33,153 bases of DNA from a virus. Lineage: Duplodnaviria; Heunggongvirae; Uroviricota; Caudoviricetes. The position numbers and the translations under genes were made by a program. How positions within the stretch are numbered: position 1 is the stretch's first letter; the number at the start of each line of letters is the position of its first letter. Under the pieces are notes generated by a model that did not search any database, was not told where the DNA came from, and saw only the letters and a list, made by a program, of their open reading frames with translations. Of this stretch, positions 19,772-29,264 are shown in pieces. The stretch is taken from IMG/VR virus record IMGVR_UViG_2529292972_000025, one strand, 5' to 3'.

Positions 19772-20626
19772 TCAGCAGTTCGTCATCAGGGCGTCACCGC
19801 CACCGCCGGTGGCCTTGCTGCGGCGCTGCTGGGTCAGACTTTCGGTGTGGTCGAGACTGTTTTTCAGGCGGGTGAATGCCTGGCTGGTTTCATCCGCCCT
19901 GTCAGTCACATCCTGCTTAAGTGCGGAAAAGGCGTTTTCCATCTCAGCGAGGCGCTGCTCAGTGGCGCTCAGTTTTTCCTGCACATGTTCAGCAACAGCG
20001 GTCACCGCTTCATGCACGTCATTCAGACGGGCGTCATCGCTGGCCTGTTTGCGGCCAAAAATGGACTTCACCTTTTCGGTCAGGGCGGTGAACACGGTTT
20101 CAGGCAGGTCTTCAAATTCCAGCTCAACAGGCGTTGCCACTGAAATCAGGTTTTCAGGGCTTAATTTGAAGCGGTTCAGGGGGTTGTGTTTTGCCGTGCG
20201 GCAGAATTCCAGGTATTCCGTGCCGAGGCTTGCCGGGTCATCGGTGACGGCCAGACCCACCAGATAACATTTGCCGGTATTGGCAAAGTTCGGCTGAATT
20301 TCCATTGAGGTATAGACCTTCTGCGCGGCCTTGTTCATCGCGATAAGGTCATCGGTCGGGGTGATTTTCGCAAACAGCGCCCATTTGCCTTTCAGCGCCG
20401 AATCATCGTCAATCTTTTCGGCCTTCAGTTCGACCACATCGCCATAACGCTTAAAAATACCGTCAGGCAGGATGCCGCGCAGATGTTCCAGGTTAATGCG
20501 GCAACCATAGACTCGCGGGTCAAAGGTTTCGGCCATTTCCTGAATATCCTGCGCACTGATGACACGCCCGTCACAGGTGTCACCCTCAACGCCGATACGA
20601 AAGAATTTTGAGACTTTTTTTGCCAT
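19772..20626 (-). CDS. O: Capsid scaffold protein gpO
   Basis: Start at ATG 20626 (MAKKVSKFFRIGVEG...); ORF track extends upstream without a plausible start. Confidence 0.85.
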   Translation of the reverse strand: MAKKVSKFFRIGVEGDTCDGRVISAQDIQEMAETFDPRVYGCRINLEHLRGILPDGIFKRYGDVVELKAEKIDDDSALKGKWALFAKITPTDDLIAMNKAAQKVYTSMEIQPNFANTGKCYLVGLAVTDDPASLGTEYLEFCRTAKHNPLNRFKLSPENLISVATPVELEFEDLPETVFTALTEKVKSIFGRKQASDDARLNDVHEAVTAVAEHVQEKLSATEQRLAEMENAFSALKQDVTDRADETSQAFTRLKNSLDHTESLTQQRRSKATGGGGDALMTNC

Positions 20627-20799
20627 TGTCAGGAGTCCTGAATAGTGATTAGAGGAGTCACATGTCGGCATCAGTTTCCCGACGATGCGCATCCTCCGCC
20701 ATCAGTCCCGGATGGCTTATCACTGACACAACAGCACCTTAGCGAATCGCGGGGCGCGACTCAGTAGCCTTGCCGTGTATTCATCACGGCGAGGTATTC

Positions 20800-22572
20800 A
20801 TGACCATCACCACAGACACCACTCTTTTACACGACCCGCGTCGTCAGGCGGCGCTGCTGTACTGGCAGGGGTTTTCCGTGCCGCAGATTGCCGCCATGTT
20901 GCAGATGAAACGCCCGACAGTGCAGAGCTGGAAACAGCGCGACGGCTGGGACAGCGTTGCCCCCATCAGCCGTGTCGAAATGAGTCTGGAAGCGCGGCTG
21001 ACCCAGCTCATCATCAAACCGCAGAAAACCGGCGGTGACTTCAAGGAAATTGACCTGCTGGGACGCCAGATTGAACGACTGGCACGGGTAAACCGTTACA
21101 GCCAGACCGGCAACGAGGCAGACCTTAATCCGAACGTCGCTAACCGCAACAAAGGCGGGCGTCGCAAACCGAAAAAGAATTTTTTCAGTGACGAGGCCAT
21201 CGAAAAGCTGGAGCAGATTTTCTTTGAGCAGTCTTTCGACTATCAGTTGCACTGGTATCGCGCCGGGCTTGAGCACCGCATCCGCGATATCCTGAAATCC
21301 CGCCAGATTGGCGCGACGTTTTATTTTTCCCGCGAGGCGCTGCTGCGTGCCCTGAAAACCGGTCATAACCAGATTTTTCTGTCGGCCAGTAAAACGCAGG
21401 CGTATGTGTTCCGCGAATACATCATCGCCTTTGCCCGGCTGGTTGACGTTGACCTGACCGGTGACCCGATTGTCCTGGGCAATAACGGCGCAAAACTGAT
21501 TTTTCTCGGCACCAACTCCAACACCGCACAAAGCCATAACGGCGACCTGTACGTCGACGAGATTTTCTGGATACCGAATTTTCAGGTACTGCGTAAGGTG
21601 GCATCAGGTATGGCCTCACAGAGTCACCTGCGCTCGACCTATTTCTCCACCCCGTCCACGCTGGCGCACGACGCCTACCCGTTCTGGTCCGGTGAACTGT
21701 TTAACCGGGGACGCGCCAGCGCCGCTGAACGCGTGGAAATCGACGTCAGTCATAACGCCCTTGCCGGTGGGCTTCTCTGTGCGGACGGCCAGTGGCGGCA
21801 GATTGTCACCATTGAGGACGCGCTGAAAGGCGGCTGCACGCTGTTCGACATTGAGCAGCTCAAACGCGAAAACAGCGCCGACGATTTTAAAAACCTGTTC
21901 ATGTGTGAATTTGTTGACGACAAGGCGTCGGTGTTCCCGTTCGAGGAGCTGCAACGCTGCATGGTCGACACACTGGAAGAATGGGAAGACTATGCACCCT
22001 TTGCCGCAAATCCGTTCGGCTCCCGCCCGGTATGGATTGGTTACGACCCGTCACACCGTGGCGACAGCGCCGGATGCGTGGTACTGGCACCGCCGGTGGT
22101 GGCCGGTGGCAAATTCAGAATACTTGAGCGTCACCAGTGGAAAGGCATGGACTTTGCCACTCAGGCGGAATCCATCCGCAAACTCACCGAAAAATACAAC
22201 GTCGAATACATCGGAATTGATGCCACCGGCCTCGGTGTCGGCGTGTTCCAGCTCGTGCGCTCGTTCTATCCCGCCGCGCGCGATATCCGCTACACGCCGG
22301 AAATGAAAACCGCAATGGTGCTCAAGGCCAAAGACGTCATCCGCCGTGGCTGTCTGGAATATGACGTCAGCGCCACCGACATCACCAGCTCGTTCATGGC
22401 TATCCGCAAGACCATGACCAGCAGCGGACGCAGCGCCACCTATGAGGCCAGCCGCAGCGAGGAAGCCAGCCACGCCGACCTCGCCTGGGCAACCATGCAC
22501 GCCCTGTTAAATGAGCCACTCACCGCCGGTATCAGCACTCCGCTGACATCCACCATTCTGGAGTTTTACTGA
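20800..22572 (+). CDS. P: Terminase large subunit (ATPase) gpP
   Basis: Start at ATG 20800 (MTITTDTTLL...) 5 nt after GAGG; ORF track starts at a TTG at 20770; divergent from O as in P2. Confidence 0.9.
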   Translation: MTITTDTTLLHDPRRQAALLYWQGFSVPQIAAMLQMKRPTVQSWKQRDGWDSVAPISRVEMSLEARLTQLIIKPQKTGGDFKEIDLLGRQIERLARVNRYSQTGNEADLNPNVANRNKGGRRKPKKNFFSDEAIEKLEQIFFEQSFDYQLHWYRAGLEHRIRDILKSRQIGATFYFSREALLRALKTGHNQIFLSASKTQAYVFREYIIAFARLVDVDLTGDPIVLGNNGAKLIFLGTNSNTAQSHNGDLYVDEIFWIPNFQVLRKVASGMASQSHLRSTYFSTPSTLAHDAYPFWSGELFNRGRASAAERVEIDVSHNALAGGLLCADGQWRQIVTIEDALKGGCTLFDIEQLKRENSADDFKNLFMCEFVDDKASVFPFEELQRCMVDTLEEWEDYAPFAANPFGSRPVWIGYDPSHRGDSAGCVVLAPPVVAGGKFRILERHQWKGMDFATQAESIRKLTEKYNVEYIGIDATGLGVGVFQLVRSFYPAARDIRYTPEMKTAMVLKAKDVIRRGCLEYDVSATDITSSFMAIRKTMTSSGRSATYEASRSEEASHADLAWATMHALLNEPLTAGISTPLTSTILEFY

Positions 22573-23606
22573 TGAGCAAGAAAAAAGGGAAAACACCGCG
22601 ACCTGCGGCAAAAACAATCACCGCCAGCGCCCCGAAAATGGAAGCATTCACCTTTGGTGAGCCGGTGCCGGTACTCGACCGCCGTGACATTCTGGATTAC
22701 GTCGAGTGCATCAGTAACGGCAGATGGTATGAGCCACCGGTCAGCTTTACCGGTCTGGCAAAAAGCCTGCGTGCTGCCGTGCATCACAGCTCACCGATTT
22801 ACGTCAAACGTAATATTCTGGCCTCGACATTTATCCCGCATCCGTGGCTTTCCCAGCAGGATTTCAGCCGCTTTGTGCTGGATTTTCTGGTCTTCGGTAA
22901 TGCGTTTCTGGAAAAGCGATACAGCACCACCGGTAAGGTCATCAGACTGGAAACCTCACCGGCAAAATATACCCGCCGTGGTGTGGAGGAGGATGTTTAC
23001 TGGTGGGTGCCGTCCTTCAACGAGCCGACAGCCTTCGCGACCGGCTCCGTGTTTCACCTGCTGGAGCCGGATATTAATCAGGAGCTGTACGGCCTGCCGG
23101 AATATCTCAGCGCCCTTAACTCTGCCTGGCTGAATGAGTCGGCCACGCTGTTCCGCCGCAAGTATTACGAAAACGGCGCACATGCCGGATACATCATGTA
23201 CGTCACCGACGCATTGCAGGATCGCGATTACATTGACTCAATCCGCGAAAACATGGCTAATTCGAAAGGCCGCAATAACTTTAAAAATCTGTTTCTCTAT
23301 GCACCGCAGGGAAAGCCAGACGGCATCAAAATTATCCCGCTCAGTGAAGTGGCAACGAAGGACGATTTTTTTAATATCAAAAAAGCCAGCGCCGCTGACC
23401 TGCTGGACGCGCACCGCATCCCCTTTCAGTTGATGGGCGGCAAGCCGGAGAACGTCGGGTCGCTGGGTGATATTGAGAAAGTGGCAAAGGTCTTTGTCCG
23501 CAATGAGCTTATCCCGTTACAGGACAGGATTCGGGAAATAAACGGCTGGCTCGGCCAGGAGGTCATCCGCTTTAAAAACTACTCACTGGACACTGACAAC
23601 GGCTGA
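22572..23606 (+). CDS. Q: Portal protein gpQ
   Basis: 344-aa ORF, ATG overlaps P stop; P2 order. Confidence 0.9.
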   Translation: MSKKKGKTPRPAAKTITASAPKMEAFTFGEPVPVLDRRDILDYVECISNGRWYEPPVSFTGLAKSLRAAVHHSSPIYVKRNILASTFIPHPWLSQQDFSRFVLDFLVFGNAFLEKRYSTTGKVIRLETSPAKYTRRGVEEDVYWWVPSFNEPTAFATGSVFHLLEPDINQELYGLPEYLSALNSAWLNESATLFRRKYYENGAHAGYIMYVTDALQDRDYIDSIRENMANSKGRNNFKNLFLYAPQGKPDGIKIIPLSEVATKDDFFNIKKASAADLLDAHRIPFQLMGGKPENVGSLGDIEKVAKVFVRNELIPLQDRIREINGWLGQEVIRFKNYSLDTDNG

Positions 23607-23775: not shown

Positions 23776-23794
23776 GTGCTTTCCCCGCCTCGCC
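23776..23794. other. cos cohesive-end site (19 nt)
   Basis: GTGCTTTCCCCGCCTCGCC is the reverse complement of GGCGAGGCGGGGAAAGCAC, the P2 cohesive end as I recall it; located just beyond Q as expected. Confidence 0.7.
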
Positions 23795-23953
23795 CGCCCG
23801 CTTCATGGGGCGGTTTTAATGCAGATGCACGAACACGCCGAAGGCGCGCCAGTACCGGCGGCGCTCACACGTGACTGGGAAGGAAAACGCATGCGATTCG
23901 ATGCAGTAATGCATGCAGAGCTAAAAATGGCAGAACATACTGAAAAAACGCAT

Positions 23954-23981
23954 AAAAAAACCGGCATTCAGGTTGCCGGTT
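23954..23981 (-). terminator. Intrinsic terminator for the minus-strand small-gene transcript
   Basis: Stem AACCGGCA (23959-23966) / TGCCGGTT (23974-23981), 7-nt loop; A-run 23954-23960 on plus gives a U-run on the minus strand. Confidence 0.6.
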
Positions 23982-24000
23982 TGAGTCGACTTCATTGTGG

Positions 24001-24102
24001 TTACTGGCCGCGCAATGCGCCAATAATACTGGTAAGGCAACAAGTGGCAACAATCAGCAAAAAAACCGTCGTCCACGGATTTTCATAAATGAGAGATAAC
24101 AT
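24001..24102 (-). CDS. Hypothetical 33-aa hydrophobic peptide (MLSLIYENPWTTVFLLIVATCCLTSIIGALRGQ)
   Basis: Not in ORF track (under 60 aa); ATG at 24102, AAGGA about 11 nt upstream, one predicted transmembrane stretch, ends just before the terminator. Confidence 0.35.
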   Translation of the reverse strand: MLSLIYENPWTTVFLLIVATCCLTSIIGALRGQ

Positions 24103-24118
24103 ATTGATAAAGATCCTT

Positions 24119-24250
24119 TTATTTGTTCATTCTGATGTGGTTTAAAAGGTGTTTGATAACGACCGTAAGCTCATCTTTACTGGCTTGCTCGACCATTTTT
24201 TCGGTGTAGCTTTCCACTTCGCGGGAACTCAGGTCGTTATTTGAGGCCAT
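24119..24250 (-). CDS. Hypothetical small protein (43 aa from ATG 24250; 64 aa if from ATG 24313)
   Basis: Open frame in cargo island; start ambiguous; MASNNDLSSREVESYTEKMVEQASKDELTVVIKHLLNHIRMNK. Confidence 0.35.
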   Translation of the reverse strand: MASNNDLSSREVESYTEKMVEQASKDELTVVIKHLLNHIRMNK

Positions 24251-24311
24251 TACAGTGAGTCTCTTTGCCCAGTCGGCATAAGGGTCTTTAATTGATGAAA
24301 GGGAATTATGC

Positions 24312-24749
24312 ATGTCCAAAAACCTCGAATTATTTAACCAGCAGACGGCTGAAATCTTTGCGGTGCTATGGGATAACTTTCCTGTACCACAAGTCATCAC
24401 CTACAAAAAATTTAACGCCGCGTTACCTGATGACTACTTTGACCAACTTAACTCACCAGAAATGAAAGCACTGAATCAGTTGCGTAGTGTGGTTGATGGC
24501 ACATTCACTTTCCTAAGCGAAAACGGCTATATTCTGTACGGAACAGACCATCAGACCGGTTTTCATGATGTGCGCCTGACCGAGAAAGCACTCGCGGTGC
24601 TCAACAAAAAACCCGAAGCACTTGGCGGTAATGAAACGATGGGAGATAAAATTATCAGTGCAGTAAAAGACGGGACTCCAGGTGTCATTGCTGGAGCAGT
24701 GACAAACCTGTTGACTCTTGGTGTTAATTTTGTGACGTCAGCTTCATAG
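24312..24749 (+). CDS. Hypothetical 145-aa cargo protein, no family recognised
   Basis: ATG at 24312 with AAGGGA Shine-Dalgarno 7 nt upstream; convergent with the RT gene. Confidence 0.6.
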   Translation: MSKNLELFNQQTAEIFAVLWDNFPVPQVITYKKFNAALPDDYFDQLNSPEMKALNQLRSVVDGTFTFLSENGYILYGTDHQTGFHDVRLTEKALAVLNKKPEALGGNETMGDKIISAVKDGTPGVIAGAVTNLLTLGVNFVTSAS

Positions 24750-24775
24750 CTAACTACTTTCTGAGGTTTCTAATC

Positions 24776-24818
24776 AACGCCGCCTGCACCGAAAGTAAAT
24801 TCCTGCACTGGCGGCGTT
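24776..24818. terminator. Hairpin between convergent genes (terminator-like)
   Basis: 9-bp stem AACGCCGCC (24776-24784) / GGCGGCGTT (24810-24818); no immediately adjacent U-run on either strand. Confidence 0.3.
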
Positions 24819-24873: not shown

Positions 24874-25824
24874 TTAATTTGCAGTATTAGCCTTTAAAGT
24901 AAGCACCTTAGATTTGTAACGTTGCTCAATCACTCCCATTGAATGCAAACGACCAAAGAGCTTTTTGGCAATGATTGTTTCTCTCGCATTTTCGGCGTCT
25001 TTAATTATTTTCCAATAATCTATTTCCCTAGCCATCAAAAAATGCTGCTCATTCCTAACTTTTAATGCATTGCCTAATACAATAACTCCAGTTACCAACT
25101 TAGGCTTATCTCTGGCATATAGTTTTGTTTTCGTTGGGTGTATAACATGCCCATGCTTATTAACGATCTTACGAATTACAGCGCAGAACAATCGATTTAC
25201 GTTACTACCTGAAAAAGTGAGATCATCAACATAAACAGTCATGTTAACTCGTAACTTTTGGCAAAGTTGATATATTTCACCAAACATTCTTGAATTTGCA
25301 AAATATGCCAACGGCATACTGATGCGACTACCTGTTGGCAATCGGTCATGACAAGTACATATGTGAGACAAAACATCAGCAACATCAGATGACATTTTCA
25401 TCACCGAAAAGAAAAAAGAAAATATCATCCCTCTTGTAGTTGATGGAAAAAAAGCTTTAATATCTGTTGTCATCATCTTTTCATTATTAAGATGAGCTTT
25501 AGCATTCGTCACATTAGAGCACTTCTTCTTCCCTGAGTGCAGATATTCTGGCAAAGCAATCCGCGATAACAAACTTGCAATTCGTGTATGTACAAGTTCT
25601 AGTTTTTCTAAAGGCTTTTGTATTTTTCGTGCTTTCCCTTTTTTAGAAAGCTGCTCAAAAACGGAATAGTTTCCTTCATCTTTTCTCAAAGAGTATAAAT
25701 CATCAAGACTAACACAAAGCAAATTCGCCAGTTTTCTTTTACTTTTGAGTTTATAAAATGGCGAATCCATTATGTCATAAGATTTATTTTTAGTATTAAC
25801 TTTAAGCTTTTTCCGTTTTTTCAT
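24874..25824 (-). CDS. Reverse transcriptase, retron-type (defence-associated)
   Basis: 316-aa product with NAKAH (NAxxH), TTDIKAFFPS (motif A), LPTGSRISMPLAYFANS (motif B region), YVDD (catalytic motif C) and LVTGVIV (VTG) in the canonical order. Confidence 0.85.
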   Translation of the reverse strand: MKKRKKLKVNTKNKSYDIMDSPFYKLKSKRKLANLLCVSLDDLYSLRKDEGNYSVFEQLSKKGKARKIQKPLEKLELVHTRIASLLSRIALPEYLHSGKKKCSNVTNAKAHLNNEKMMTTDIKAFFPSTTRGMIFSFFFSVMKMSSDVADVLSHICTCHDRLPTGSRISMPLAYFANSRMFGEIYQLCQKLRVNMTVYVDDLTFSGSNVNRLFCAVIRKIVNKHGHVIHPTKTKLYARDKPKLVTGVIVLGNALKVRNEQHFLMAREIDYWKIIKDAENARETIIAKKLFGRLHSMGVIEQRYKSKVLTLKANTAN

Positions 25825-26110
25825 TTTTATTACTTACCCACTCCAGAACATCCAGAACTTTACCGGCTAAATTTAAACGCAATCGCTTAGACAAACGGCC
25901 TTGCGTGCCTAATGATTCCGAAAAGAATACTAAAGAGGATACTGGTATGTCGAAATGGGAGGCGTAACGCTCTAAGACTTCAATCGACGGTGACCAAACT
26001 CCGCTTTCAAGCGATACTATTTTGTCTTTTGGAATACCTAAAGATGAAGATAACTCAACTATTGATTCTTTATGGTATTGCCTTATTAAACGAAGGGCTT
26101 TATGTAACAT
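25802..26110 (-). CDS. XRE-family helix-turn-helix protein, RT-associated
   Basis: Start at ATG 26110 (GGAG 6 nt upstream) gives MLHKALRLIRQYHKESIVELSSSLGIPKDKIVSLESGVWSPSIEVLERYASHF...; stop overlaps RT start by 23 nt. Confidence 0.7.
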   Translation of the reverse strand: MLHKALRLIRQYHKESIVELSSSLGIPKDKIVSLESGVWSPSIEVLERYASHFDIPVSSLVFFSESLGTQGRLSKRLRLNLAGKVLDVLEWVSNKNEKTEKA

Positions 26111-26146
26111 AGGCAACTCCATGCTATTGAAACTAGGGAGGACGCA

Positions 26147-26302
26147 TTACTCATCACCCCCTTCGAAGTAGTCCAGTGCTCGAGTAACTAAATCAAACAG
26201 TCTAATACCCCATTTGATTAATTTCCAAGCGTAACCAGCCCACTTTTTCAGGTTTGACTTGTTCTGCGCCTGCTGTTCGTTGGTTAATTTATCATTCTTC
26301 AT
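26147..26302 (-). CDS. Hypothetical 51-aa protein, first gene of RT operon
   Basis: ATG at 26302 with AAGGAG Shine-Dalgarno 7 nt upstream; MKNDKLTNEQQAQNKSNLKKWAGYAWKLIKWGIRLFDLVTRALDYFEGGDE; ORF track's 130-aa version has no plausible upstream start. Confidence 0.55.
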   Translation of the reverse strand: MKNDKLTNEQQAQNKSNLKKWAGYAWKLIKWGIRLFDLVTRALDYFEGGDE

Positions 26303-26667
26303 GATTTGCTCCTTATGCCCATAGTGTGCAAACGGTATGTCTGCTCCAACACTATGGTTCGCCCTCATAAGGATGAGATTGAACAGCACTAGCCCCCTGC
26401 TCCACGAACCCTTGGTCGCCCAAAGGGTTCGAATACCCATACGCCATACCTCCTGATCCTGTGACTCCTGTCGCTGGCAGGGGCGTTGCGCGGGGTAAGT
26501 GTTAGAAAGCGTTAACTTTCCACGGGTAAAAATACCCAATTGATGGCGATATATCTCACTAACTAACCAATGTTTGCATCATAACAAGTAAACCGTTGTA
26601 TTTGCTCCCCCTGTATATGATATTTTTTCATATAAAACAAATATATAATAAGTTAAAGGCATATCAA
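26303..26667 (-). promoter_or_regulatory. Promoter plus ~330-nt structured leader of the RT operon (candidate ncRNA)
   Basis: Candidate sigma70 promoter on minus strand: -35 TTGATA (26667-26662), -10 TATATT (26645-26640); leader carries nested hairpin 26311-26372 and 9-bp-stem hairpin 26405-26431. Confidence 0.3.
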
Positions 26668-26710: not shown

Positions 26711-28999
26711 TTACATGAAAAATGACTCTTCATCTCGAAATCCGAACCACTCATTAATAACCATATACGTGAATTTTTTCCCGTCATAATTTACGGTTGC
26801 CCCACGCGCCAGCGCCTCAATCTCCCATCGCTGAGGCCTGATACCGTTCTGAGCAAGGTCAACGCGGATACGGGTAATTTGCATTCGTTCCGACCGGGTC
26901 AGTCTGGCCGATGGCGCTATTTCATGCGGTTTTAACGGGCTTCCGCTTCTTTGCTGACGGTTTGGTGTTCTCAGGTCGTGTTTTAATGCGCCCCTGAGCG
27001 CCCTCACGACCTCCGGGTCATTCCATTCGATAACACCGTCATCAACCAGATTAAGCACTGCGGCGGCGTGCTCAGAAGGTGTGGGAGCCGGTAACGAAGT
27101 ATCACCACCGGTGAGCTTTCCACAGTTATTGACAGGACTCCGAGGCGCGGCGATGCCGCTTTTTAAAGTCAAAGGCTCCACGACCGGAACTTTCGGCACA
27201 ATGCGCCAGTCCGTCGTTCTGGTGATATGAATATGACGCGCGCCGAGATGCGGCGCGTAAATGCCGACCACTCTCTCGACTTCTTCCTCGTACTCGTTAA
27301 CGTCATCCGACGGGCTACGGGCGACTCTGACAGTCTGGCAATCGCGCGGAACATTTGCCCCACCCTGCGCGCTGATATACAACGCAAAATCGCCACTGTC
27401 TGCGGCAGCACGTGCAGCCTCGACGCGTTCGTCAAACTCATCAGCAATGCTGACGCCGCGAGGCAATTTGCGTAGTTCACGGTAAGCCCCCATTGTCGGC
27501 AGGCCAACCGTTTTAAATTGCGGGATACGCCACGTTGACGCCCATGCGGTAACAGCCGCTGCAGTGTCTTTCAGCGGCCTGCCGGTATCGTTATCGAGCT
27601 GACCATCCAGTGCATAGCCGTCGATGTTTTTTGAAATGTATTTCGCGATATATCCCGCTGCACCGCCCCGGTTAAGGTGTTTTGCCTGAAAACGGTTTCG
27701 CGCAGCTCCTCTTTCATCGCCATCCTCTTTGAGCGCATAGCGACGCATGATTTCGATAATCTGGTTACGCTGGCGTGGATTACAAAAAAGCATCATATGC
27801 CAGTGCGGTGTTCCATCGTGGTGTGGCTCGACGACTCGCAAACCGTAGACCTGTAAATCATTATCCTTGAATGCCGTGCGCATCAGGCTCCAGATACGGC
27901 AGAGATAACGCTGCGCATCCTTTGGATTAAATGCCTCATCGTTCCAGCCGTGATTTAGCTGGACGGTTTTACTTTCGCCTTTTCCGACCTGACGTGTCGG
28001 GTGATACTTTGACGGCGTGGTCAGCGTGATAAACATCCCCACATCACCCTCTGCGGCGGCGTAACGCTCAATACCGGCAATGGTGTTCATCAGCTCCATC
28101 CGGCGAATTTCAGGATTAGAAATACTGCCCATCACCTTACTGATAAGGTCGATGCGTTCGCCGGTTTCCCTGTTTTCGAGGTCACACGATTTAAGAAATT
28201 CCAGATTTGCCTGGCGGCGCGCACGCACATCACGAATGGCGTGTTTACTGGCATAAGGAGAACGGTCTTTATTGACCTCCCCGACAGCAATCAGTAACGC
28301 CTCATGCCAGCGCATACGCTGGCCTTTAAGCTGATGAGTCCACCACTCATCGTTAAACAGGCGGGCAATGGCAGAATATGCCTGCCTCGTGGTCATCTGC
28401 CCTTTACGGTATTTTTTCCAGTAAAGCGGGGAAATATTGAAAGCACGTGCAGCGCCAGCAACATGACCATACAGGTGAGCCTGCGCCTCATCCGTAAACA
28501 GCGATTCTTTTTCGCCATGCGCATCCACCCAGGCATCGCAGATTTCCTCATACATCATGAAAAGCTGCGATGAGATACGGGCGGCAAACTTTTTCAGCTC
28601 CTTGTCATTCATTCCAGGCAGGCGCGCATAGTGGTCACGCTCTGCCAGAAACAGCAACGACGCGTCGGTGTTCATTTCATGGCGCTGATTCACGCGCTCA
28701 ATGCGCGGCCATAAACGACGCTGAAAAGTGGATGTGAGGAAATAAAACCCGTGCACCGGGCTTTTATTGCGCCGGATATAGTCATAGCGTGAAGTAAACA
28801 GCGAGCGCAAAAAGTAAGGCAGGCGGTTAATCGTGGATAAAACACCTTGCACCTGACGCATCTCGTCACGTGTAAGGGGTCTTTCGCGCCCGACAGCCTC
28901 ACGTGGCGCGTTCCATGCATAAGCACCGGTAAACGTCTTACCGGTGCCTGCGGCAAATGCTGACGAAGGGACAAAATGCCCGGAGGCTTTAACGGCCAT
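26711..28999 (-). CDS. A: Replication initiation protein gpA (rolling-circle endonuclease)
   Basis: Start taken at ATG 28999 (MAVKASGHFVPSSAFAAGTGK...); ORF track begins at a TTG at 29041. Confidence 0.85.
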   Translation of the reverse strand: MAVKASGHFVPSSAFAAGTGKTFTGAYAWNAPREAVGRERPLTRDEMRQVQGVLSTINRLPYFLRSLFTSRYDYIRRNKSPVHGFYFLTSTFQRRLWPRIERVNQRHEMNTDASLLFLAERDHYARLPGMNDKELKKFAARISSQLFMMYEEICDAWVDAHGEKESLFTDEAQAHLYGHVAGAARAFNISPLYWKKYRKGQMTTRQAYSAIARLFNDEWWTHQLKGQRMRWHEALLIAVGEVNKDRSPYASKHAIRDVRARRQANLEFLKSCDLENRETGERIDLISKVMGSISNPEIRRMELMNTIAGIERYAAAEGDVGMFITLTTPSKYHPTRQVGKGESKTVQLNHGWNDEAFNPKDAQRYLCRIWSLMRTAFKDNDLQVYGLRVVEPHHDGTPHWHMMLFCNPRQRNQIIEIMRRYALKEDGDERGAARNRFQAKHLNRGGAAGYIAKYISKNIDGYALDGQLDNDTGRPLKDTAAAVTAWASTWRIPQFKTVGLPTMGAYRELRKLPRGVSIADEFDERVEAARAAADSGDFALYISAQGGANVPRDCQTVRVARSPSDDVNEYEEEVERVVGIYAPHLGARHIHITRTTDWRIVPKVPVVEPLTLKSGIAAPRSPVNNCGKLTGGDTSLPAPTPSEHAAAVLNLVDDGVIEWNDPEVVRALRGALKHDLRTPNRQQRSGSPLKPHEIAPSARLTRSERMQITRIRVDLAQNGIRPQRWEIEALARGATVNYDGKKFTYMVINEWFGFRDEESFFM

Positions 29000-29264
29000 G
29001 TGTGCCAAAAGCCTCTGAACAACGCTTGCTGAGTTGCTCAACCTGCGCGTTTAAATCGGCAAAAGATTTTGCGCTTCCGGTCAGAATATCGTGATGCATC
29101 AGGCCGGAAACGAGCTGGCTTAATTTCGGGTAATAACCAACCACCGCCAGCCATTCCTGACCGGCGTTTTTACCGCTTTCCGCTCTCTTTTTCTCGTGGA
29201 GAATAAACTGAAAGCTGTCACTGGTAACGACATAACGTTCGCCAATTTCAATACGAATACTCAT
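28989..29264 (-). CDS. P2 orf83-like protein
   Basis: 91-aa ORF, GGAG Shine-Dalgarno, overlaps A start; position as in P2. Confidence 0.6.
   Translation of the reverse strand: MSIRIEIGERYVVTSDSFQFILHEKKRAESGKNAGQEWLAVVGYYPKLSQLVSGLMHHDILTGSAKSFADLNAQVEQLSKRCSEAFGTHGR

Follow-up and report, generated by a model that had tools for sequence, protein, structure and literature searches.

The main feature of this region, as judged from sequence comparison, is a head-to-head pair of genes with fused start codons that is conserved across distant temperate phages. The core of the cassette comprises a predicted winged-helix gene of ~145 aa and a predicted helical partner of 64-85 aa, the two starts being fused in the tetranucleotide CATG. 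Our preferred reading, to which we give a probability of roughly 0.35, is that this is an autonomous accessory ('moron') cassette acting as an antisense-coupled two-state switch, with a payoff that would likely lie in phage-phage competition or in lysogeny-lysis control. The window (the whole stretch of 33,153 nucleotides analysed; IMG/VR record IMGVR_UViG_2529292972_000025) is a P2-like prophage, and the region described here is 100% identical in E. coli O157:H7 strains, e.g., FRIK944. It encodes a capsid scaffold gpO (19772-20692, minus strand), a terminase (20770-22572, plus strand), a portal (22572-23606, plus strand) and a replication protein gpA (26711-29041, minus strand), and the module spans about 23,950-24,755 (~0.8 kb), filling the gap between a retron and cos.

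The sequence-only reading of this DNA had described a 145-aa protein, a divergent small protein, a 33-aa peptide, a terminator and an overlap of the two start codons, and each of these elements was found where it had been placed. The 145-aa gene (24312-24749, plus strand) encodes an acidic protein predicted to fold as a winged helix with a C-terminal helical hairpin (phrog_2266), and has a Shine-Dalgarno sequence (AAGGGA) 8 nt upstream, in agreement with the good ribosome-binding site ascribed to it. The 64-aa partner (24119-24313, minus strand; phrog_2454) is encoded divergently. The tetranucleotide common to both start codons (24311-24314) reads CAT on the minus strand and ATG on the plus strand; the overlap had been located correctly, but its naming as the palindrome ATGCAT was slightly wrong, as ATGCAT occupies 24308-24313 and the overlap is CATG. 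Purifying selection acts on each gene, pN/pS being 0.15 (145 aa) and 0.31 (64 aa), and full-length profile matches were obtained for both, to phrog_2266 (E = 2.4e-61) and phrog_2454 (E = 4.3e-41), each annotated as 'unknown function'. These PHROG families of unknown function were the only families matched, as expected from the earlier statement that the proteins belong to no recognised family.

The fused starts were conserved well beyond the window. Every one of the ~60 close loci, which contain 38 unique pairs, had the CATG overlap. Among 82 loci of distant relatives from IMG/VR, 51 had the exact 2-nt overlap in CATG and two more had abutting divergent starts, in the form CATATG, while 17 of the 82 carried no partner gene. 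At 27-33% identity the same layout occurred in prophages of Pseudomonas, Aeromonas and Morganella and in metagenomic myoviruses, as well as in a Mu-like E. coli phage, and Janthinobacterium was among the sources of distant viral contigs carrying the pair. The distant partner genes are divergent, encode 69-85 aa and form one family (phrog_25421) with the motif Q(L/V)xGxMDxVRAxxYW...L(A/V)xAL. Comparison of the 64-aa family with these distant partners gave a weak match (hhalign P = 0.011, gapless over 48 columns), and together with the synteny this makes the two families probably, not certainly, homologous; they may instead be analogues. About half of the distant partners (L086-L165) end in a Cys-rich tail of the CRCCRCC, CQCCGR or CNCCC type, which suggests metal binding; the 64-aa protein of the window lacks such a tail.

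Three further features of the pair were measured. Pairwise distances among the 145-aa proteins were correlated with those among the 64-aa proteins (r = 0.71), and the two proteins largely co-evolve. Synonymous diversity was modestly lower over the first 10-20 codons of both genes, which we read as overlapping constraints at the two 5' ends. Orientation was biased: the gene following the winged-helix gene was convergent with it in 64 of the 76 non-redundant viral contigs, and both flanking genes lay on the partner's strand in 42 of the 76, these contigs not being phylogenetically independent. From this bias, the winged-helix gene is counter-oriented in the manner of a moron, and the partner runs with the phage operons. 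The sites occupied were also moron-like, lying beside cos/terminase, a lysis cassette or an integrase, or between tail genes.

Structure prediction gave a three-helix bundle (pLDDT 74) for the 64-aa protein, which contains the invariant motifs NNDLSSRE and LLNHIR. A structural-neighbour search with the predicted model returned nothing informative. The small protein had been proposed to have either 43 or 64 aa; the longer form was upheld and the shorter one discarded, since Met22, at which it would start, is often Leu in homologues and residues 1-21 are conserved at the protein level, the 25 homologues compared, which range from Escherichia to Yersinia and Serratia, aligning with it over its whole length. 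The 64-aa gene comes in two diverged allele types, A and B, ~55-62% identical and differing mostly in residues 1-22. Type B alleles can be paired with 145-aa genes that are 90-92% identical to the partners of type A, a pattern suggestive of recombination in or close to the CATG junction. The only residues of the 145-aa protein that tracked the allele type were E6/D6 and D21/E21, which were uninformative. A likeness to T7 gp5.5/gp5.7 (H-NS inhibitor), taken from the GenBank annotation of phage Midge, was dismissed, with an hhalign probability of <1% for both proteins.

Downstream of the 64-aa gene on the same strand is a 16-nt spacer (24103-24118, minus strand), conserved in sequence across loci and containing a Shine-Dalgarno sequence (AGGA), followed by the gene for a 33-aa peptide (24001-24102, minus strand; MLSLIYENPWTTVFLLIVATCCLTSIIGALRGQ) predicted to be a single-pass membrane peptide. 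This ORF had been picked out as unannotated, and the comparative data bore it out as a real gene. Its length and position were constant in 11 of the first 14 related loci, and likewise in most of the 56 IMG/VR loci, and most related loci share the motif MLSL(I/V)YENPWTT(V/I)FLLIV.S.CLNS.IGALRGQ. Its pN/pS of 0.36 was the lowest of the six frames (the others ranging from 0.58 to 2.8), a moderate constraint only, and in one locus a serine codon had switched from TCT to AGC. The hydrophobic core that had been noted was also recovered, with a 19-residue Kyte-Doolittle maximum of 2.38, indicating a probable transmembrane helix. The ORF is among the protein calls of thousands of public contigs, named 'hypothetical' every time, and the annotation of Klebsiella phage ST147-VIM1phi7.1 includes it as a CDS. 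The operon of the 64-aa and 33-aa genes ends at an intrinsic terminator (23948-23982, minus strand; stem 23958-23982, U-tract 23948-23957) that adjoins the cos flank. This terminator, described as strong in the earlier reading, is genuine: the stem is followed by a U7 tract, the folding energy is -15.4 kcal/mol (z = -2.7), and the CCGGCA...TGCCGG stem with its T-run is kept in 12 of the first 14 related loci (the exceptions being L012 and L014).

It could be argued that the small ORFs arose by chance and that the 145-aa gene alone is real, or that the real gene near cos is an 89-aa CDS annotated by PGAP (WP_001177885; 23819-24088, plus strand). PGAP calls this CDS, which matches phrog_6595, yet leaves the 33-aa ORF uncalled. 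On the strand opposite the 33-aa gene, the 89-aa CDS overlies that gene, the terminator and the cos flank. Its reading frame is, however, unconserved, as the terminator T-run is 6 to 8 long depending on the locus and L008, L009 and L013 carry interruptions of the frame, and the CDS sits over a cos flank that is common with P4; on these two grounds it was ruled out as a real gene. The conservation of the 64-aa protein over its full length, the constraint on the 33-aa frame and its serine codon switch also contradict a chance origin, which we reject as highly improbable. Very likely, the 89-aa CDS is an annotation error that found its way into the PHROG family phrog_6595. For annotation, the lesson is that a true 33-aa gene is routinely overlooked and a spurious 89-aa CDS is called over cos.

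Three architectures of the module were found. In the first, the 145-aa, 64-aa and 33-aa genes are all present. In the second, the 145-aa/64-aa pair is present and the peptide gene is missing, replaced or frameshifted (L004, L012, L014, L054-61, L064, L066-69). In the third, the 64-aa and 33-aa genes are downstream of a DinI-like gene and on the same strand, and the 145-aa gene is reduced to its first 19 codons (L005, L008, L071-81). The homology breakpoint in this third architecture falls exactly 57 nt upstream of the 64-aa ATG, so that the first 57 nt of the 145-aa gene, which form the upstream region of the 64-aa gene (24314-24370, minus strand), are retained exactly in the deletion variants. 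This segment could serve the 64-aa operon as promoter or 5'UTR.

These architectures bear on the suggestion, made in the sequence-only reading, that a small soluble protein followed by a membrane peptide resembles a toxin-antitoxin or abortive-infection layout. Here the 33-aa peptide would be a depolarising toxin checked by the 64-aa protein and/or by the 145-aa protein, the latter as a repressor or antitoxin. The predicted single-pass helix is strongly hydrophobic and of the size of a type I toxin, the layout with a terminator at the operon end implies that the peptide is co-transcribed with the small soluble protein, and the module is located in a defence hotspot beside a retron with a small toxic protein of its own. 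As a conserved core, however, this layout did not hold up, because the peptide is lost, frameshifted or replaced in the many pair-keeping loci of the second architecture and was found in none of the distant loci. Moreover, the operon of the 64-aa and peptide genes outlives deletion of the 145-aa gene, and the 145-aa protein is therefore not an obligatory antidote to the peptide. Toxin and antidote were thus not strictly co-inherited, the HMMs for toxin-antitoxin and defence families gave no match, Rfam gave no antisense RNA, and the constraint on the peptide is moderate. The toxin-antitoxin reading is weakened overall and we regard it as unlikely, although it may still hold for the 64-aa/peptide pair. 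The peptide itself is a lineage-specific accessory add-on that is often lost.

A complete type VI retron (24874-26302, minus strand) adjoins the module, and the operon next door that had been described from its reverse transcriptase is this retron. Its genes encode an SP of 51 aa (26147-26302, minus strand), an HTH protein (25802-26122, minus strand; PADLOC HTH_VI, 8e-31) and an RT (24874-25824, minus strand; PADLOC RT_VI, 4e-105). A 130-aa ORF listed at 26147-26539 is a mere upstream extension of the SP frame, and the hybrid RNA, i.e., the msr-msd template of the retron, is likely located upstream at about 26303-26650. An Rfam scan of 23.5-26.9 kb, including the putative msr-msd region, gave no match. 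Between the 145-aa gene and the RT gene, which converge, is a stable hairpin (24776-24818; -22.8 kcal/mol, z = -3.8), with a U-tract on neither strand. As the homology of loci without the retron stops at the 145-aa stop codon, this hairpin belongs to the retron unit.

Because the module is adjacent to the RT gene and the 145-aa gene is convergent with it, the module genes might be accessory parts of the retron, and 29 E. coli genomes, as well as Klebsiella phage ST147-VIM1phi7.1, carry the two together. The distribution refutes such membership, which is barely credible. The module was present in 99 of 5,426 complete E. coli genomes and together with the retron in about 29, so that about 70 of the 99 module-bearing genomes have no retron and have unrelated neighbours instead, with homology ending at the 145-aa stop codon. 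The published SP-HTH-RT set of type VI, the canonical architecture, is already complete at 24874-26302 in the window without the module. The module is independent of the type VI retron, and the earlier description of a separate cargo module beside the RT operon was borne out. Its other neighbours include an AAA_15/21 ATPase pair with a GNAT gene, DinI/Tum-like genes in 186-like phages, and a gene of the ComEC/metallo-beta-lactamase fold. In phages Midge, FSL SP-004 and ST147-VIM1phi7.1 it occupies the cos-adjacent extreme right end of the genome. The idea of a plasmid module was dismissed, as just three plasmid matches were found.

The cos site itself was located by the 19-nt P2 cohesive-end sequence GTGCTTTCCCCGCCTCGCC (23776-23794), and comparison of the window with cloned P2 and P4 sequences showed that ~160 nt to the right of it (within 23776-23957) match a cos flank common to P2 and P4. 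The module terminator is at the very edge of this P4-like flank and may have an additional role in shielding cos against read-through transcription. The interval between cos and gpA is the P2 'hotspot' for anti-phage cargo (PMC9122126), which includes old/tin, the 'hp+hp+hp' (3HP) system and retrons (Rousset et al., 2022; PMC9122126); non-defence cargo is also present there. In the hotspot arrangements of Rousset et al. (2022; PMC9122126) the proteins of the module appear only as 'hypothetical', and its sequences are absent from the systems tested in that study. Some P2-like prophages, such as that of E. coli BS74R-D (L002, 1977-3724), have a pair of genes for an AAA_15/21 ATPase and a hypothetical protein inserted between portal gene and module terminator. 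If cos has its usual place directly beside the terminator there, this cargo would be on the portal side of cos, and the arrangement would indicate a second cargo slot flanking cos.

The family of the 145-aa protein is large and uniform. A profile search of 1.84 billion representative proteins gave 655 related clusters (at 50% identity), all of them single-domain proteins of ~125-160 aa, and all relatives that were tested belong to phrog_2266. They keep the motifs NI(D/E)xFN, LYExFP, W-L, LTxKGL and PxSL. The family is acidic, with a median net charge of -5 and 95% of its members acidic, and the MarR-type wing arginine varies across it. The C-terminal helix is hydrophobic in the window (Kyte-Doolittle 1.52) and amphipathic in distant relatives. 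Homology searches, which had been proposed as a check on the 145-aa protein, gave zero Pfam, NCBIfam or PADLOC family matches for the window's three proteins or 61 relatives, no significant match in PDB sequence searches (the best being a MarR protein, E = 0.24), and no relative of the cassette proteins in BFVD. The UniRef label 'DUF2513' on a Morganella relative was set aside, as Pfam support for it was absent in the 61 relatives. In one metagenomic myovirus (L024, 5001-6172), two paralogous winged-helix genes are in tandem between a Phage_TAC_7 tail-assembly-chaperone gene and a tail-tube gene, with a fused-start partner beside the second one only.

This fold raises the prospect of a regulatory pair without a defence role, in which a MarR-like winged-helix factor and a small anti-repressor-like antagonist would tune genes of the prophage or of the host, for example in lysogenic conversion or in the choice between lysis and lysogeny, with the peptide an incidental small membrane protein. 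The predicted winged helix has N- and C-terminal helices as in MarR, which was also the best PDB match, and MarR-type regulators typically have a divergent layout. In 186-like phages the 64-aa and peptide genes are directly downstream of a DinI/Tum-like gene on the same strand, and the Morganella partner is located within an early operon. The 145-aa protein is, however, acidic and lacks the conserved wing arginine, a Pfam MarR or HTH match is absent, an operator-like repeat was conserved nowhere among the alleles compared, and the variable positions between phages speak against a core regulatory role. DNA binding by the 145-aa protein would be plausible from the fold, but the acidic family and the unconserved wing arginine make it doubtful. 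A purely regulatory role fits the fold and the Tum-like neighbour but is, on balance, an unlikely account of the pair.

We return to the two-state switch, which is suggested by the fused starts, the orientation bias, the lower synonymous diversity at the 5' ends and the co-evolution of the two proteins. As the pair has no intergenic DNA, each promoter and 5'UTR must sit inside the opposite gene, and the two mRNAs, where both genes are transcribed, are complementary over the two ribosome-binding sites. We propose that antisense coupling of this kind would make expression mutually exclusive and so create a two-state switch. The winged-helix gene, which usually opposes the surrounding phage operons, would be the product of the lysogenic state, and the partner, here together with the peptide, would be made along with the phage operons upon induction or read-through. 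The partner would then interact with the winged-helix protein, antagonising it, or replace it. In the enterobacterial P2-like lineage, the strong terminator would halt transcription of the 64-aa and 33-aa genes short of the cos packaging site. A consensus scan and our own PWM found no sigma-70 promoters above shuffled background on either side. The only palindrome upstream of the 145-aa start (24276-24311) was rejected as an operator, since its conservation does not extend to type B alleles.

The payoff of the proposed switch could be phage-phage competition, through exclusion of other phages or abortive infection, or it could be regulation of when the prophage itself passes from lysogeny to lysis, and addiction is a further conceivable payoff. 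Only location, in the P2 defence hotspot and at classic moron sites, points to competition or lysogeny control, and a place in this hotspot, which takes non-defence cargo as well, is no more than guilt by association. A more specific version is offered tentatively: the fused-start pair may be an unrecognised, widespread mobile switch that gates a new exclusion/abortive-infection or self-immunity function, with the winged-helix protein acting in the lysogen, the partner as its induction-time antagonist and, in enterobacterial P2-like phages, the peptide enlisted as a further effector.

A literature search by accession, PHROG id and keywords found no paper on the cassette, and its proteins are publicly named 'hypothetical protein' throughout; as far as could be found, the head-to-head cassette is undescribed and unstudied. 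No characterised relative was found, and the cassette lies outside the systems described so far. It is nevertheless common: it is represented by 655 protein clusters and thousands of enterobacterial contigs, and it occurs in phages of several proteobacterial orders. If it functions in phage-phage competition or lysogeny control, a compact system of ~0.8 kb would be added to the known repertoire, and if the switch is true, it would have an unusual built-in regulatory logic in which two genes are readable solely through each other.

Comparison with known systems set the cassette apart from each of them. Among the defence systems in PADLOC-DB v2, including those of Rousset and Vassallo, no component matched the three proteins or the 61 relatives, bar one chance match to AriB (E = 0.0012), and in contrast to members of the MarR family, none of these proteins matched a MarR profile HMM in Pfam or NCBIfam. 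The module resembles other P2 hotspot cargo in occupying the same slot, between gpA and cos/gpQ, but it has no homology to old, tin or 3HP, and the proposal that it is the 3HP system was rejected, as the proteins are unrelated and those of 3HP are >200 aa each. It also differs in being always cos-adjacent, whereas the other cargo varies beside it; the P2 hotspot holds a semi-fixed element next to cos, with other defence cargo swapped alongside.

Type I toxin-antitoxin systems have small hydrophobic toxins (TisB, Hok, Ldr). Like these and the SP toxin of type VI retrons, the 33-aa ORF encodes a peptide of ~30 aa with a single predicted transmembrane helix on a mobile element, but the peptide has no sequence similarity to any of them. 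Unlike type I toxins, it is encoded behind the 64-aa gene in an operon, has no known antisense sRNA in the Rfam scan and is dispensable in many loci. In the excludons of Listeria, divergent genes have transcripts that overlap at their 5' ends, and expression of one gene can silence the other. The cassette would share this property, as its divergent transcripts must overlap at their 5' ends if both are made. Compared to excludons, however, its overlap is extreme, with starts fused in CATG and no intergenic DNA, and it is conserved as a mobile two-gene unit.
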